A stretch of 64,000 nt of DNA from an uncultured Bacteroidales bacterium (GCA_900318275.1 ONJY01000009.1:7445-71444), one strand, 5' to 3'. Positions 7,759 to 64,000 are shown, counted from the stretch's first letter. The notes: generated by a model not told the origin, from the letters alone. Program-made: numbers and translations.

Positions 7759-7860
7759 CTCGGAGCCCCTTCGGCCACTCTACGGCCTTTCGACGGCCTT
7801 TCGACGGCCTTCCACTGAAGAAATGCCGAAGGGGGGCCGTAGGGGCTCCGTACCGGCTCC
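7759..7860. repeat. CCGAAGGG-arm modular palindromic element, copy A
   Basis: Contains CTCGGAGCCCCTTCGGCC, two tandem CGGCCTTTCGA 11-mers, CACTGAAGAA and ATGCCGAAGGGG. Positions 7783-7834 are identical (52/52) to 40010-40061. Confidence 0.85.
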
Positions 7861-7989
7861 ATACCAAAACGACTCCGTCTACATACCCGAACGGCACCGT
7901 AAATATACTTAATTTAAAAATAATCCATACTGCAGGGCAATAAAAAACGGGGGAGTGCGTTATAGACCACAAACACTAAACACAGCACT

Positions 7990-27665: not shown

Positions 27666-27814
27666 AGCGTTCCGTTCCAGTTGTTCCAGTTGTTTTTTAA
27701 GGGGTACCACTTTTCCAACTCTCTTTATATATTATTAATTATTAATTAGTTATAATATAAAATAAGGGAATGGGTATACCTTATTTTTAATTGGAACAAT
27801 TGGAACGGAACGCT
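27666..27814. repeat. inverted-array element: 26-27-nt arms built from TTCCAGTTG / CAATTGGAA 9-mers around a ~96-nt AT-rich core
   Basis: Left arm AGCGTTCCGTTCCAGTTGTTCCAGTTG (27666-27692). Right arm AATTGGAACAATTGGAACGGAACGCT (27789-27814). Complementary except for 2 positions. Confidence 0.85.
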
Positions 27815-30503: not shown

Positions 30504-30654
30504 GCGCCCATTCCGAGACGGACTTCCTACGGAGCCGGTACGGAGTCCCTTCGGCATTTCTTCAGTAGTTCTTCAGTGGTTCACTGAAGAACGATGGTCG
30601 AACGATGGTCGAAATGCCGAAGGGACTCCGAGGAGGGACCGAAGGGAATGGGCG
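30504..30654. repeat. CCGAAGGG-arm modular palindromic element, copy C (nested inverted repeats)
   Basis: Outer IR: CGCCCATTCC (30505-30514) / GGAATGGGCG (30645-30654). Inner 19-nt perfect IR: GGAGTCCCTTCGGCATTTC (30542-30560) / GAAATGCCGAAGGGACTCC (30611-30629). Central hairpin CTTCAGTG-GT-TCACTGAAG and two tandem GAACGATGGTC 11-mers. Confidence 0.9.
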
Positions 30655-39888: not shown

Positions 39889-39985
39889 TTCGCTAAAAAT
39901 GCGGATGCAAAAGTAATAAAAAAAAAGAATATAGCAAAAGTTTTTTTATCAATCCAGTCGCCCTCTGTTTTCCACTCCGAGTCCC

Positions 39986-40070
39986 CTCGGAGTCCCTTCG
40001 GCCCCCCTTCGGCCTTTCGACGGCCTTTCGACGGCCTTCCACTGAAGAAATGCCGAAGGGGCTCCGTACC
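39986..40070. repeat. CCGAAGGG-arm modular palindromic element, copy B
   Basis: CTCGGAGTCCCTTCGGCC, two tandem CGGCCTTTCGA units, CACTGAAGAAATGCCGAAGGGGCTCCGTACC. Positions 40010-40061 are identical to 7783-7834. Confidence 0.85.
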
Positions 40071-40105
40071 AAAATCGTACAAAAAAGTGGCTTGTTTAAT
40101 TTTTT

Positions 40106-54812: not shown

Positions 54813-54930
54813 ATCGTTCAACCATACTTCGACCGTAGTTCGACCATCGTTCGACCATATAGAATGGTTAAACGATGGTTGAAGTATGGTCGAACGATGG
54901 TCGAAATGACGATGGAAGTGCGATGGAATG
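54813..54930. repeat. palindrome of 11-mer arrays: four direct NNNNTTCRACC units followed by four to six inverted units
   Basis: Direct units at 54813-54856 (ATCGTTCAACC, ATACTTCGACC, GTAGTTCGACC, ATCGTTCGACC). Inverted units from 54865 (TGGTTAAACGA, TGGTTGAAGTA, TGGTCGAACGA, TGGTCGAAATG...). Perfect 21-nt IR: 54839-54859 / 54885-54905. Confidence 0.9.
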
Positions 54931-60102: not shown

Positions 60103-61132
60103 ACTCTTCCGCTGGGCCCTGTGGTGGGGCCTGGGCATTGTGATAGCATGCCTGGCGGTGATTGTCATCGACGCCATCATGAACATGGACAAAACAGGCG
60201 CCGACGAAATGAGCACCCCGATAATGGGCGCTTTCTACAAACTCATCTACAACTTTGGCATCTGGCCCATAGTGCTGTACATAGGCCTCGTCGGGCCCGT
60301 CGTCGAGGAGCTGTGTTTCCGCCTGTGGGGCAACGGCAAACAGTGGACGGGCTACACCTCCGTGGCGCTGATGGCGCTGTGGATGCTCTCTCTGGGCTGG
60401 CTGGCTGCCGCCATAGCCCTTGGTGCCGGCATAGCCGTCATGATTGTCTACCACAACGACAGAACACGGCGGCTCTTCGCGCTCATGCTGCTCTCGTCAC
60501 TGCTCTTCGCTGCGGCCCACATAGGCAACTATAACCCCAGCGGCAGCCTGACCATGTTCCTCGTTGCCGTGCTCCACAAATTCGGCATGGGCCTGGCGGC
60601 ATCCTATTTGGTCATCAACCATAACATACTTTGGTCTATGGGGCTGCACATACTGAACAACGGCGTGCTGGCCGTCATCTTCGGCGTGGGCGTCGGCATG
60701 GCCGCCGACACCGTTACCACCGCCGAGAACAAGGACTGCCGCATCACCCTGCGGCCGGTACTGACGAAGAGTGCCGACAAAGACACCTATGTGCAGGGAT
60801 GGCTTGACGACAGCACCTACACCGACATCGGCACCCCTGGCAACATAGCCCAGACTCTTAACTCCATAGCACACATGAACGGCTCCACGACGCAATGCGA
60901 CTACGAGTGGTCGGATTACCCCAAGGCAGAGATAACGGTGGTGATGCTCGGCGGTTGCCGCGACTACACACGCCCCGTTCGCCTGATGGAAGAGAAGCAA
61001 TGGATAGCCATCGACACAGTAGAACATGCCGACAGCGTGCGCACAATGTATGTGGGCGACAGCTCATACACCATCGCCGTCGAGCGCACCGTCACAATAC
61101 GCAACACCTACGAACCCCTGTCGGGGATTTAA
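60089..61132 (+). CDS. CPBP (CAAX/Abi) family intramembrane glutamic endopeptidase with unassigned ~150-aa C-terminal domain
   Basis: Motifs PVVEELCFRLWG (EExxxR), FAAAHIGNY, HILNNG. 14-nt overlap with the helicase gene. Confidence 0.8.
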   Translation: MKKPKLFRWALWWGLGIVIACLAVIVIDAIMNMDKTGADEMSTPIMGAFYKLIYNFGIWPIVLYIGLVGPVVEELCFRLWGNGKQWTGYTSVALMALWMLSLGWLAAAIALGAGIAVMIVYHNDRTRRLFALMLLSSLLFAAAHIGNYNPSGSLTMFLVAVLHKFGMGLAASYLVINHNILWSMGLHILNNGVLAVIFGVGVGMAADTVTTAENKDCRITLRPVLTKSADKDTYVQGWLDDSTYTDIGTPGNIAQTLNSIAHMNGSTTQCDYEWSDYPKAEITVVMLGGCRDYTRPVRLMEEKQWIAIDTVEHADSVRTMYVGDSSYTIAVERTVTIRNTYEPLSGI

Positions 61133-62494
61133 TCACACCTCTATCTCGCCGCTGATGCGGTCGTCGCCCCACACGGAGTACATGTTGGTACGGCCCTCGT
61201 GGAGGGTCATCTTGCCCTTGGCCTCGAGGTGCAGGCGATAGAAGACGCACTGGTGCAGGTCGGCCTGGCCGCACACCACGTCGGTGGCGAAAGCCTCACA
61301 GGTGGGAGCGCCACACACACCGCAGTCAATCTGCGGCAGATGCACCTTCATCTTCTCTATCTTCTCCATCTTCTCGAAGGCCTTCTTGCGGTCCTCGTCG
61401 AGGATGAGCATGGAGCGAGGCTGCACCTCGTCGACAAAAGCGTTCTCAACCAGATATTCTTTGTACTTCTCCATCTCGCGGTCGCGCGGCATCTCGCCGT
61501 TGCGCTCACGCTCGGCGGCCTTGCGGGCACGGGCGTACATGCGCTCGCCGCAGAGGAAACGGTTGTCGCAGCTCAGCAGCGCACCGGCACAGCTCTGGTC
61601 GCAAGCCCTCAGCTCGAGGAACTCCACGCCCTCCACCTCGTCGTTCTCCAGCTTGTCGAGGAAATCCATGACGTTCTCTATGCCGTCTATCGAGTAGCTG
61701 CGCTTGGCCGTGCAGATGCGGCGCTCACCGTTGGTGAGGGTCGAGAGGATGGCGTCGGCACTCAGACGCTGACGCGTCAGCGGCGGGTATTGGTGGTTCT
61801 TGCCGTTGTCTTTTATCTGCTTGTATACGCGGTTGAACAGCGAGTTCATGTTAATCACGCCGTCGATGATGCTCTTCTCCTCGCCCACAGGGGCCTTCAC
61901 AGCCGACACCTTGGCGGCGCACGGCGTGATGTAGAACAGGCCTATCTGCTCGCGCGGTATGCCGCGGCTCAGCAGCTCCTGCAGGGCATACATGGCGCTG
62001 ATATCCAGCGGCACCTTGATGGGCATGATGTTCTCCGCCAGCGACGGGTACTTAATCTGTATCAGGCGCACGATAGCCGGACAGAACGACGATATCAGCG
62101 GTCTTATGTCGGGGTGCTCGCGGGCGTATTTCTCCTTCACGTCGCGGTAGATAGAGGCTGCGGCCTCCACCTCCATCACATGGGCGAAGCCCAACTCATA
62201 GAGCGTGGCATAGACCTTCGAGACACTTATCTCGTCGGGGAACTGGCCCATAAACACCGCAGGCAGCAACGCCACAGAATGGGGATAGCGGCGGAACATC
62301 TCGAAGTCATCGTCCTTGATGCTGATAGACTGCGCCGGGCACACCTCATAGCACTTGCCGCAGTCGATGCAGCGGTGCTCCTGTATGGATGCCTTGCCGC
62401 CATGTATGCGTATAGCCTCGGTAGGGCATATCTTCATGCAGCGCGAGCAGCCTATGCAGCGCTGTTCCTCAACCTGTAATGCGTGATAGAACAT
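61133..62494 (-). CDS. [FeFe]-hydrogenase-like (H-domain) iron-sulfur protein, probably sensory rather than catalytic
   Basis: Two ferredoxin motifs (CIGCSRCMKICP, CIDCGKCYEVCP). Altered H-cluster motifs SSFCPAIV, ITPCAAK and ELRACDQSCAGA. C-terminal CGVCGAPTCEAF Fe-S motif. Confidence 0.8.
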   Translation of the reverse strand: MFYHALQVEEQRCIGCSRCMKICPTEAIRIHGGKASIQEHRCIDCGKCYEVCPAQSISIKDDDFEMFRRYPHSVALLPAVFMGQFPDEISVSKVYATLYELGFAHVMEVEAAASIYRDVKEKYAREHPDIRPLISSFCPAIVRLIQIKYPSLAENIMPIKVPLDISAMYALQELLSRGIPREQIGLFYITPCAAKVSAVKAPVGEEKSIIDGVINMNSLFNRVYKQIKDNGKNHQYPPLTRQRLSADAILSTLTNGERRICTAKRSYSIDGIENVMDFLDKLENDEVEGVEFLELRACDQSCAGALLSCDNRFLCGERMYARARKAAERERNGEMPRDREMEKYKEYLVENAFVDEVQPRSMLILDEDRKKAFEKMEKIEKMKVHLPQIDCGVCGAPTCEAFATDVVCGQADLHQCVFYRLHLEAKGKMTLHEGRTNMYSVWGDDRISGEIEV

Positions 62495-62505
62495 CTTTCT
62501 TTAAA

Positions 62506-62550
62506 GGTTATAGGTTATAGGTTATAGGTTAGGGGTTATAGGGTTGGGGG
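62506..62550. repeat. heptamer array GGTTATA x3, GGTTAGG, GGTTATA, GGGTTGG (left flank of the four-helix-bundle cassette)
   Basis: Read directly. Inverted with respect to 62930-62957. Overlaps the last codons of the pseudogene. Confidence 0.9.
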
Positions 62551-62924
62551 GATATCTGCTTGCTATCAAAGTAGTTCTTTAGTCCCGAGAGCATCTTTGC
62601 CACCTCGATAAACTGCGGTCGTATCACATCAATTTGCACCTGTGTCAAATACCCCAATTCCTGGGCGATCTGAAGTTGGCTGAATGCTTCCATAAGAGAA
62701 CCCTAGGCTATTTCAATGAAATGGGCTTTCTCCTTGAAGGAACTACGTCCGCTACCTTCGGCAATATTCGAGGTGACAGAAGATGCCGAGCGTCTGACCT
62801 GGTCTCCCAAGGCATACGTCTCGTATTTGGGGAAAATATGCTGCAAAGAATAGATATCCCTTACCAATATTTTAGCCATTTTATATACTTCCAAATCTTC
62901 AAAAGAAAACTTCTTTTCGTCCAT
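62529..62924 (-). pseudogene. four-helix-bundle protein (23S rRNA intervening-sequence protein / Avd-like family) interrupted by one in-frame TAG
   Basis: Track ORF 62703..62924 (MDEKKFSFEDLEVYKMAKILVRDIY...NIAEGSGRSS...HFIEIA) stops at the TAG (62703-62705). The same frame continues GSLMEAFSQLQIAQELGYLTQVQIDVIRPQFIEVAKMLSGLKNYF... to the TAA at 62529-62531. Confidence 0.8.
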
Positions 62925-62929
62925 CTCTC

Positions 62930-62957
62930 TATAACCTATAACCCATAACCTATAACC
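62930..62957. repeat. heptamer array TATAACC x2, CATAACC, TATAACC (right flank; reverse complement of GGTTATA)
   Basis: Read directly, 5 nt beyond the pseudogene ATG. Confidence 0.9.
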
Positions 62958-62966
62958 TTTTATTCG

Positions 62967-63380
62967 CTATGCGAAAAACACTTCCATCTCCACGGTGGTG
63001 CCTACGCCCACCTCGCTGGTGACATTCATCTTGTCGACATTCTTCTGCATGTTGGGCAGGCCCATGCCGGCGCCGAAGCCCATATCGCGCACCTCGGGGC
63101 GTGCGGTGCTGTAACCCTCCTGCATGGCCAAGGCTATGTCAGGGATGCCGGGGCCCTTGTCGGCCACCACCATCTTTATCTTGTCGGGGTCGATGTCCAC
63201 CAGCACCTTGCCACCATAGGCGTGGGCTATGGCGTTCACCTCGGCCTCGTAGAGCGCCACGACGACGCGCTTCACTATCTGCGGGTCTACATTGAGCTGC
63301 TTCAACGTCTTCTTCACCGAACTGCTTGCCTTGCCAGCGTTGACGAAATCGCCCTCTATAACAGTATATTCCTGATGCAT
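62967..63380 (-). CDS. SpoIIAB-like anti-sigma regulatory factor / serine protein kinase (HATPase_c)
   Basis: N-box EAEVNAIAHA, G1 DKGPGIPD, G2 GFGAGMGLPN. 137 aa. Confidence 0.8.
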   Translation of the reverse strand: MHQEYTVIEGDFVNAGKASSSVKKTLKQLNVDPQIVKRVVVALYEAEVNAIAHAYGGKVLVDIDPDKIKMVVADKGPGIPDIALAMQEGYSTARPEVRDMGFGAGMGLPNMQKNVDKMNVTSEVGVGTTVEMEVFFA

Positions 63381-63388
63381 CTTTCCAA

Positions 63389-63458
63389 TTATGAGTTATG
63401 AGTTATGAGTTAAAAGCTGCCGCACCTGGAGAACTCTTAATTCTTAACTCTTAATTAA
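63389..63458. repeat. inverted heptamer arrays (TTATGAG x3 ... AACTCTT/AATTCTT x3-4) around a 19-nt spacer; cargo-less hairpin
   Basis: Left array 63389-63412, right array 63432-63458. Units are complementary at 6 of 7 positions. The right array overlaps the DRTGG stop codon. Confidence 0.8.
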
Positions 63459-63796
63459 TAAAGCGGTTTCATGCCTGCCTGGTAGAGTATACCGCAGGTC
63501 TTGAACATGGAGTACTGCGTGCAGATGAGCACCATGCCGTTCTCGTCGGCCAGCTCCACCATGTCCTCCGTGGGGCGCTTGCCGCGCACGAAGATGACCA
63601 CGTCGAGGTTGGCCATGTCGCAGGTGCGTATGGTCTGCACGTTGCACAGACCCGTGATCAGCACCGGGGTATCCTTGAGCGTCAGCACATCGCTCATCAG
63701 GTCGGAAGCAAAGCAATGCTCCACCTCCATGTCAAGCTTGTCGGCACCAAGACCCACCGAGGCGCCAAGTTTATCCACAATAGCTTGTAAAGTCAT
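63455..63796 (-). CDS. DRTGG-domain protein
   Basis: 113 aa with an ASDLMSDVL...VLITGLCNVQTIRT...VVIFVRG pattern, recalled from DRTGG proteins that accompany SpoIIAB-like kinases and hydrogenase-like sensors. Confidence 0.65.
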   Translation of the reverse strand: MTLQAIVDKLGASVGLGADKLDMEVEHCFASDLMSDVLTLKDTPVLITGLCNVQTIRTCDMANLDVVIFVRGKRPTEDMVELADENGMVLICTQYSMFKTCGILYQAGMKPLY

Positions 63797-63799
63797 AGT

Positions 63800-63841
63800 T
63801 TTGTGAGGTATATATTATTATTTGTGAGGTATATATTATTA
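63800..63841. repeat. perfect 21-bp tandem duplication (TTTGTGAGGTATATATTATTA x2) in the 5' UTR of the minus-strand operon
   Basis: 63800-63820 and 63821-63841 are identical. The pair lies between the minus-strand promoter and the ATG at 63796. Confidence 0.9.
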
Positions 63842-63855
63842 ATTGTTTCCGAGTG

Positions 63856-63886
63856 CAAATTTACGCATTTATTTCCACATGGCAAA
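63856..63886 (-). promoter_or_regulatory. promoter of the DRTGG/kinase/hydrogenase-like operon: TTTG N19 TAAATTTG (minus strand)
   Basis: Minus strand reads TTTGCCATGTGGAAATAAATGCGTAAATTTGCACTCG. Confidence 0.75.
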
Positions 63887-63901
63887 ATTTTTGTATCTTT
63901 G
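63872..63901 (+). promoter_or_regulatory. divergent, overlapping plus-strand promoter (TTTC N18 TATCTTTG) ending 4 nt before the ATG at 63906
   Basis: TATCTTTG at 63894-63901 followed by CAGC ATG. Same geometry as 34588-34602. Confidence 0.6.
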
Positions 63902-63905
63902 CAGC

Positions 63906-64000
63906 ATGAAAAACATTGTACCACTGGCCGTAACGCTCTTGTTCACAACCCTGAACGCCCTGGCCGCACCGCTGGCCGACTCGGCGTGGCGCGCCGATGT
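63906..64000 (+). CDS. 5' end of a secreted protein gene (partial, runs off the window)
   Basis: MKNIVPLAVTLLFTTLNALAAPLADSAW is a signal-peptide-like start directly behind a consensus -7 box. Confidence 0.45.
   Translation, partial: MKNIVPLAVTLLFTTLNALAAPLADSAWRAD

Follow-up and report, generated by a model that had tools for sequence, protein, structure and literature searches.

A four-helix-bundle gene cassette framed by inverted heptamer arrays in an operon of an uncultured Bacteroidales bacterium

We analysed a stretch of 64,000 nt of DNA from an uncultured Bacteroidales bacterium (GCA_900318275.1 ONJY01000009.1:7445-71444), referred to below as the window. On its minus strand, an insert of 472 nt (62495-62966) lies between a kinase-like and a hydrogenase-like gene (Table 1). 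Profile matches to both neighbours confirmed this placement, which had been proposed in a first-pass annotation made from the sequence alone. The same annotation had described the insert as an AT-rich cassette in which an ORF is flanked by inverted GGTTATA-type arrays, and this description proved correct. The GC content of the cassette is 0.42, compared with 0.58-0.60 in the flanking genes. Tandem Repeats Finder (TRF) reported period-7 arrays at 62501-62542 (6.0 copies of TTATAGG, extending to 62549) and at 62929-62958 (4.3 copies of CTATAAC), and an inverted-repeat search returned two arms of 29 nt each that are 97% complementary and have 400 nt between them. The 5' arm begins 6 nt past the upstream stop codon and ends 7 nt ahead of the ATG of the cassette gene, and the 3' arm ends 8 nt short of the ATG of the downstream gene. 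The heptamer array of the 3' arm runs inward to about position 62550; it encodes the terminal residues of the ORF (PQPYNP) and contains its stop codon.

Table 1. Features of the cassette and its surroundings, in window coordinates
Feature	Position	Strand	Basis and remarks
Downstream gene: [FeFe]-hydrogenase-like Fe-S protein, 453 aa	61133..62494	-	PF02906, PF04060, Fer4 domains
3' arm, pairs with the 5' arm	62503..62531	-	TRF array, inverted repeat, translation
Four-helix-bundle gene, PF05635 / TIGR02436	62529..62924	-	131 codons, one TAG inside; hmmscan
In-frame TAG, codon 74 (IEIA-stop-GSL)	62703..62705	-	Translation; orthologue alignment
5' arm, sense strand	62932..62960	-	About 4 GGTTATR heptamers; TRF array, inverted repeat, paired in MFE/centroid
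Upstream gene: histidine-kinase-like ATPase (HATPase_c, anti-sigma-factor-like), 137 aa	62967..63380	-	PF13581/PF02518, weak TIGR01925
Gene-less heptamer-array hairpin in the gap between the DRTGG and kinase-like genes	63389..63458		TTATGAG x3 facing TCTTAAT x3; TRF, inverted repeat

The next gap of the operon, between the DRTGG gene and the kinase-like gene, holds a gene-less hairpin of heptamer arrays, and the orthologous hairpin is kept in the closest relative (L011). Its arms differ at the same position of each heptamer (TTAAGAG versus TTATGAG, read on one strand), so that mismatches recur with the period of the unit; homogenisation appears to have acted on the two arms separately. A 21-nt tandem repeat (2.2 copies, 96% matches; window 63800-63846) occupies the divergent promoter region upstream of the DRTGG gene.

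The first-pass annotation had also suggested that the cassette arms could pair into a stem of roughly 28 nt enclosing the ORF. Folding of the minus-strand RNA of 62490-62970 bore this out, in that a terminal stem of 29 bp was predicted to close in both the MFE and the centroid structure. The sole mismatch between the arms is a G·U on the minus (sense) strand, so that the stem would consist of 28 Watson-Crick pairs and 1 G·U. The predicted energy of the fold was -156.3 kcal/mol (z = -5.5), and none of 100 shuffled sequences was as stable. We also scored how well the two flanks of a gene, 120 nt on either side, pair with each other, using a threshold of at least 16. The cassette scored 27, whereas none of 487 control genes drawn at random from this genome reached the threshold (maximum 14.5). 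This confirmed that the array-flanked four-helix-bundle cassette is real and exceeds chance. An Rfam scan of 61000-64000 gave nothing beyond one chance-level match, and a search for an intrinsic terminator found none.

The enclosed ORF matched PF05635 over the entire profile (positions 1-106 of 106; E 2e-33; 115.1 bits against a cut-off of 33.8) and TIGR02436 likewise at full length (E 1e-30; 105.7 bits against a cut-off of 24). The closest solved structure is XCC0516 (2GSC) of Xanthomonas campestris, found at E 9e-17 with the intact orthologue of species G028 as query. Thus, the assignment of the ORF to the four-helix-bundle family stood, but the ORF is not intact: a TAG at codon 74, missed in the first pass, splits it into ORFs of 73 aa and 54 aa. 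In three orthologues, this position is the conserved Tyr of an IAYGS motif, which identifies the TAG as a single-base nonsense mutation; the gene of this cassette is therefore probably a recent pseudogene. Few copies of the family in the genus contain stop codons. Among those that do is a second member of the clade with GGTTATR arms (G004:C23), which has its own, independent TAG at Gln42, and independent TAGs are thus present in 2 of the 5 copies of this clade. Recoding at the TAG was ruled out, since the second TAG of the clade lies at another codon and most copies in the genus are stop-free. The copy in the window is an ordinary member of its class and is probably dead. Intact orthologous proteins have a pN of about 0.17 at a pS of 0.77-0.87; with pS saturated, so low a pN indicates purifying selection on the intact protein.

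To place the cassette in a wider context, we retrieved the operon of 30 relatives and compared its two intergenic gaps, that between the kinase-like and hydrogenase-like genes (kinase-hydrogenase gap) and that between the DRTGG and kinase-like genes (DRTGG-kinase gap); 28 related species were placed on a tree. The relatives belong to an uncultured lineage of Bacteroidales from the rumen and gut (RUG, RGIG and UBA MAGs; 'bacterium P3'; Ca. Colimorpha). Across about 110 related species, the kinase-hydrogenase gap measures 1-60 nt in approximately half; in the others it is longer, holds gene-less repeat hairpins or, rarely, contains a four-helix-bundle cassette. Among the 28 species on the tree, it measures 1-60 nt in most members of the genus and 18-21 nt in two outgroup genera. 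Only three of these 28, namely this genome (G000), G002 and G028, have the GGTTATR cassette in it. Species G008 has a different four-helix-bundle cassette with AATTGAG arms at the same place, and several other species have gene-less hairpins of yet other units. When the flanking genes were used for the tree, the three species with the GGTTATR cassette fell into one clade of seven. The other four species of the clade, among them the sister of this genome (G026; host-gene pS 0.31), are without the cassette, and at least two changes are needed. In 80 further species, the kinase-hydrogenase gap is at most 60 nt in 41, is a single nucleotide in 14 and contains a family gene in 4, and the DRTGG-kinase gap is at most 60 nt in 52 and contains a family gene in 2. 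Mid-size gaps of the operon in other species hold array hairpins in 19 of 61 cases, compared with 0 after shuffling.

Since the orthologous gap is short in most relatives, the outgroup genera included, we regard the cassette as an inserted unit. The comparison indicates both acquisition and loss of such cassettes at the very short gaps that separate co-directional genes. Filled and empty gaps exist side by side among close relatives, a pattern of sporadic gain and loss like that of the ORF-bearing intervening sequences (IVSs) of 23S rRNA. The first reading of the locus had raised the possibility of a mobile unit without its own transposase, for which an empty site in related strains would be telling. 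Such sites were found: about half of the relatives have a kinase-hydrogenase gap of 1-60 nt, and the same type of cassette is present at other sites. The only Pfam matches of the cassette were PF05635 and a weak one to bAvd, none of them a transposase, and inspection by eye of the borders of the cassette in G000, G002 and G028 showed no target-site duplication; judged by its own content and borders, the cassette does not conform to an IS or MITE. Neither a recombinase nor near-identical copies at two sites were seen, and the sole ground for inferring movement is therefore the patchy phylogenetic distribution of the cassette.

Of the 121 genomes of the genus that were searched, 118 contain the family, at 1-18 copies each and roughly 580 copies in all. 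Arms scoring at least 16 frame 30 of 35 family genes in a first sample and 52 of 61 in an enlarged one, compared with 0 of 487 controls; the sample of 61 is non-random, being composed of best hits and hits to one clade, and the relatives are non-independent. The clade with GGTTATR arms, whose proteins are 72-81% identical, occupies the kinase-hydrogenase gap in three species, the DRTGG-kinase gap in G077 and an unrelated locus in G004. A clade with AATTGAR arms is likewise found in both gaps. With increasing protein distance the arm units drift, to GGTTTAA at about 60% identity and to GTTTACY or GCTTAGT at about 50%. For 1283 pairs of cassettes at non-homologous loci, the 6-mer similarity of the arms rose from 0.008 at less than 40% protein identity to 0.32 at 75% or more (Spearman 0.35, permutation p 0.0005). 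By this comparison, gene and arms move as one unit that appears to keep its own arm unit at each site.

All 38 cassettes for which both neighbours could be oriented are co-directional with both of them (p 7e-12), which fits expression from the host transcript. A 30-nt arm is identical in G000 and G028 although pS between the two reaches 0.47 for the flanking genes and 0.87 for that of the cassette; this argues that the arm sequence itself is constrained or homogenised. The pS of the cassette gene (0.77-0.87) is higher than that of the flanks (0.47-0.63), and this could reflect separate acquisitions or merely a different codon usage. Of 50 armed cassettes, 48 have a G-rich 5' arm and a C-rich 3' arm, and the G-rich arm also comes first in 22 of 27 heptamer hairpins, a rule that is independent of strand. 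Because a perfect inverted repeat is identical on both strands, the polarity of the arms relative to transcription was dropped as uninformative on strand. The idea that a conserved loop motif, GCTRCGCAG, is a recognition site common to all cassettes was discarded: of the 61 genes, only 7, all from one clade, have GCTGACGCA ahead of them, and in several of these 7 it is N-terminal coding sequence (MADA...).

In the genome from which the window derives (2.28 Mb in 56 contigs, 88.6% complete), short-unit arrays number about a thousand, and 122 inverted array pairs were counted. Four classes could be distinguished: 7-mer hairpins, hairpins of the 10-mer GGAGTGARAG, 11-mer palindromes, and arms of 8/9-mers around an AT-rich core of about 100 nt. 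Of its six PF05635 genes, four have inverted short-unit arms, each with its own unit, one has direct arrays of the same unit on both sides and one has arrays upstream only. The 23S rRNA gene is absent from this assembly.

Several other arrangements were noted in the same genome. Contig region C37:86000-95000 combines dense arrays of many units with two four-helix-bundle genes (90694-91008 and 94205-94441), the first of which has CTTTGAA arrays on both sides that are direct rather than inverted. A PF13366 gene (PD-(D/E)XK, 'GxxExxY') of 154 aa at C30:4330-4924 lies between inverted 9-mer arrays (GACAACTTA) and represents a second type of cargo in the same architecture as the four-helix-bundle cassette. 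At window 27666-27814 and at about 28 other loci of the genome, variable inverted arrays of 8/9-mers with the inner ends CAGTT...AACTG surround a conserved AT-rich core of about 100 nt; this family, with its constant core and locus-specific arms, looks MITE-like or small-RNA-like. Palindromes and modules of 11-nt units (TTCGACCATCG, TTCTTCAGTAG, CGGCCTTTCGA) are found at window 54816-54905, 30549-30613, 7782-7900 and 39971-40085, with about 30 copies genome-wide. In the 11-mer palindromes the C-rich arm comes first (27 versus 7), opposite to the heptamer hairpins.

Arrays of GGTTATD are present at about 25 loci of this genome (91 matches). In the genus, they were detected in 51 of 121 genomes, with none in 70 and blooms of up to 212 matches. 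All five genomes with a GGTTATR-armed gene have at least 13 matches, compared with 16 of the 116 others (Fisher p 1e-4). Similarly, GGAGTGA arrays are present in 24 of 121 genomes, comprising 12 of the 17 with the cognate clade and 12 of the 104 without it (Fisher p 8e-7). Both Fisher tests are naive in that the counts ignore relatedness.

These distributions could be read in a REP/RAYT-like manner: the four-helix-bundle protein would be a sequence-specific partner, on DNA or RNA, of its own unit and would maintain or spread the gene-less arrays, so that the arms are simply the copies next to the gene and any RNA processing is incidental. Such an explanation would account for the patchiness of the arrays and their co-occurrence with the cognate clade, for an arm unit that tracks the protein clade at unrelated loci and for an arm sequence conserved past synonymous saturation. 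We nevertheless consider it rather unlikely. Blooms are found without the cognate gene (G026, G009, G119, G130 and G137 for GGTTATD; G129 for GGAGTGA), and cognate genes are found without arrays (G075, G110 and G122). Genomes rich in one of the two units are often rich in the other, which suggests a factor acting at the level of the genome, and the copy analysed here is a pseudogene, yet its genome has 91 matches. Furthermore, we know of no catalytic activity in the PF05635 four-helix-bundle family.

The abundance of hairpins without a gene raises a second possibility, that hairpins arise or spread alone, by slippage or in a MITE-like fashion, and that four-helix-bundle and PF13366 genes insert preferentially into their loops; the arms would then belong to the target. 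Gene-less hairpins do outnumber the gene-bearing ones (122 inverted array pairs versus 6 family genes in this genome), they recur in the mid-size operon gaps of other species (the 19 of 61 above), and three different cores (the four-helix-bundle gene, the PD-(D/E)XK gene and the AT-rich core of about 100 nt) share the variable-arm type. However, one protein clade goes with one unit across both gaps and at unrelated loci, so that insertion into existing hairpins would require clade-specific targeting. In addition, some gene-less loops retain the first codons of the clade ORF or the inner motif GCTGACGCA. The DRTGG-kinase gap of G011 (L014) contains the mini-palindrome ggttatggg-ta-cccataaccc with the same right flank as the full GGTTATG-armed cassette of G077 (L067/L098), and this palindrome is likely to be a deletion footprint. 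Taken together, the footprint and the retained codons suggest that at least some hairpins are products of gene deletion rather than sites of capture, and we judge capture to be improbable.

By analogy with known IVSs, cutting of the operon RNA by RNase III at the 29-bp stem is plausible. Of 40 good genomes of the genus, 39 have an RNase III gene; none was found in this assembly (88.6% complete). To see whether RNA pairing has left a trace in the arms, we counted G·U wobbles on the two strands. In this genome, 32 hairpins between co-directional genes have 23 wobbles on the sense and 39 on the antisense strand, and 35 cassettes of the genus have 20 and 41, respectively. There is no excess on the sense strand and hence no sign of selection on RNA pairing. 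The conservation of the arm sequence beyond pairing is likewise not what a generic dsRNA substrate would call for, as such a substrate needs no fixed sequence. These two observations call for caution with regard to a simple RNase III reading. It is very improbable that the host keeps the arms as an mRNA processing or stability element uncoupling expression of the kinase-like and hydrogenase-like genes, with the gene as a dispensable passenger: the arms are intact although the gene is broken, are identical in G000 and G028 and place the stem within 6-8 nt of both neighbouring genes, but about half of the relatives have a gap of at most 60 nt (only 1 nt in 14 of 80), the closest relative is without the cassette and the wobble signature is absent.

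On balance, and with modest confidence, we interpret the cassette as a decaying copy of a mobile unit of the rRNA-IVS kind, made up of a PF05635 gene and two inverted arrays of a clade-specific unit, GGTTATR. As the comparison with relatives indicates, such a unit enters short gaps between co-directional genes in the sense orientation, with its arms carried along. Its gene would lack a promoter of its own and be read from the operon transcript. On this transcript the arms may form a 29-bp RNA duplex that extends from 6 nt past the upstream stop codon to 8 nt before the downstream start codon. If the duplex serves as an RNase III substrate, as the stem of the 23S IVS of Coxiella does, cutting would divide the mRNA into a kinase-like, a cassette and a hydrogenase-like part. 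The gene-less hairpins would arise, at least partly, by loss of the interior. In the copy described here, the gene has probably been inactivated by the change of Tyr to TAG, and the arms are intact.

A broader proposal, which we offer as a speculation and consider doubtful, is that PF05635 proteins are sequence-specific partners of their own 7-12-nt units. Together with the arrays they would form a transposase-less mobile system resembling REPIN/RAYT, which would seed both the intergenic heptamers (in Bacteroidales, Xanthomonas and cyanobacteria) and the rRNA IVSs, and each move would regenerate or homogenise the mirror-exact arms from a single template. The function of the 23S rRNA IVS protein and the origin of the IVS are questions standing since the early 1990s, and the abundant intergenic heptamers are likewise unexplained. 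For such questions, this genus of rumen Bacteroidales is a natural experiment of unusual density: most sampled copies are armed, empty sites exist alongside gene-less hairpins and a likely deletion footprint, and each of two cassette clades is found, in different species, in both gaps of one operon. As a protein clade is tied to a specific repeat unit, the question of the substrate becomes a direct binding experiment. The present analysis adds the dense series of filled and empty sites, clade-specific arms across sites, units common to cassettes and dispersed arrays, and a negative wobble test.

A literature search found no paper on PF05635 genes with inverted heptamer arms outside rRNA, in mRNA operons. 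Genes of this family have been seen within cas loci (PMC3936711) and as ORFs in rRNA insertions of CPR bacteria (PMC11270868). The Avd protein of diversity-generating retroelements (DGRs) shares distant sequence similarity and the four-helix-bundle fold family with the cassette protein. However, the cassette is flanked by operon genes and not by a reverse transcriptase, and identity with Avd was rejected, given 22.4 bits against a cut-off of 40 for PF22296, 20.9 against 80 for NF033474, and the nature of the adjacent genes.

The REP/REPIN-RAYT systems resemble the cassette in that a small gene has its own short repeat on both sides in inverted orientation, further copies of the repeat are scattered as hairpins without a gene, the type of repeat tracks the clade of the gene and its abundance is patchy among relatives. 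In contrast to RAYT genes, the cassette gene encodes a four-helix bundle without HUH/Y1 transposase motifs, units of 7-12 nt in tandem take the place of single REP palindromes, and the co-occurrence of gene and repeat across genomes is only partial. Intergenic heptamers of Xanthomonas (GGGAATC) and Nostoc (GGGGAYT) form abundant tandem arrays between co-directional ORFs; those of Xanthomonas include 70-75 convergent inverted pairs. The copy number of the heptamers differs between relatives, and they have been interpreted as G-quadruplex formers (PMC4692102). A term search of the text of that paper found no link to a gene family. The abundance of 7-nt arrays, their location between co-directional ORFs, their variable copy number and the convergent pairs are features shared with the arrays described here, and XCC0516 is also from Xanthomonas; the units of the cassette, on the other hand, are AT-rich (GGTTATA) and bracket a gene.

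The closest counterpart in print is the ORF-bearing 23S rRNA IVS, as known from helix 45 of Coxiella burnetii and from Leptospira, and the IVS-protein family and the IVS analogy named in the first-pass annotation were well chosen. The stem of the C. burnetii IVS measures 28 bp, and three or four heptamers in tandem lie ahead of an S23p ORF; the IVS is cut in the stem by RNase III, and its ORF is decaying (PMC4990558). The 23S IVSs sit in an rRNA helix (9, 25 or 45), whereas the cassette lies in an intergenic gap of a protein-coding operon. Both arms of the cassette are explicit arrays of a clade-specific unit that has many gene-less copies in the genome, and excision by RNase III, which has been demonstrated for the IVS, is proposed for the cassette by analogy. 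The two are alike in the family of the encoded protein (S23p / 23S_rRNA_IVP), in a length of approximately 430-470 nt, in a stem of about 28-29 bp that is closed around the ORF by terminal inverted repeats, in tandem heptamers in the 5' arm just before the ORF, in a sporadic distribution suggesting horizontal gain and in an ORF that is prone to decay.
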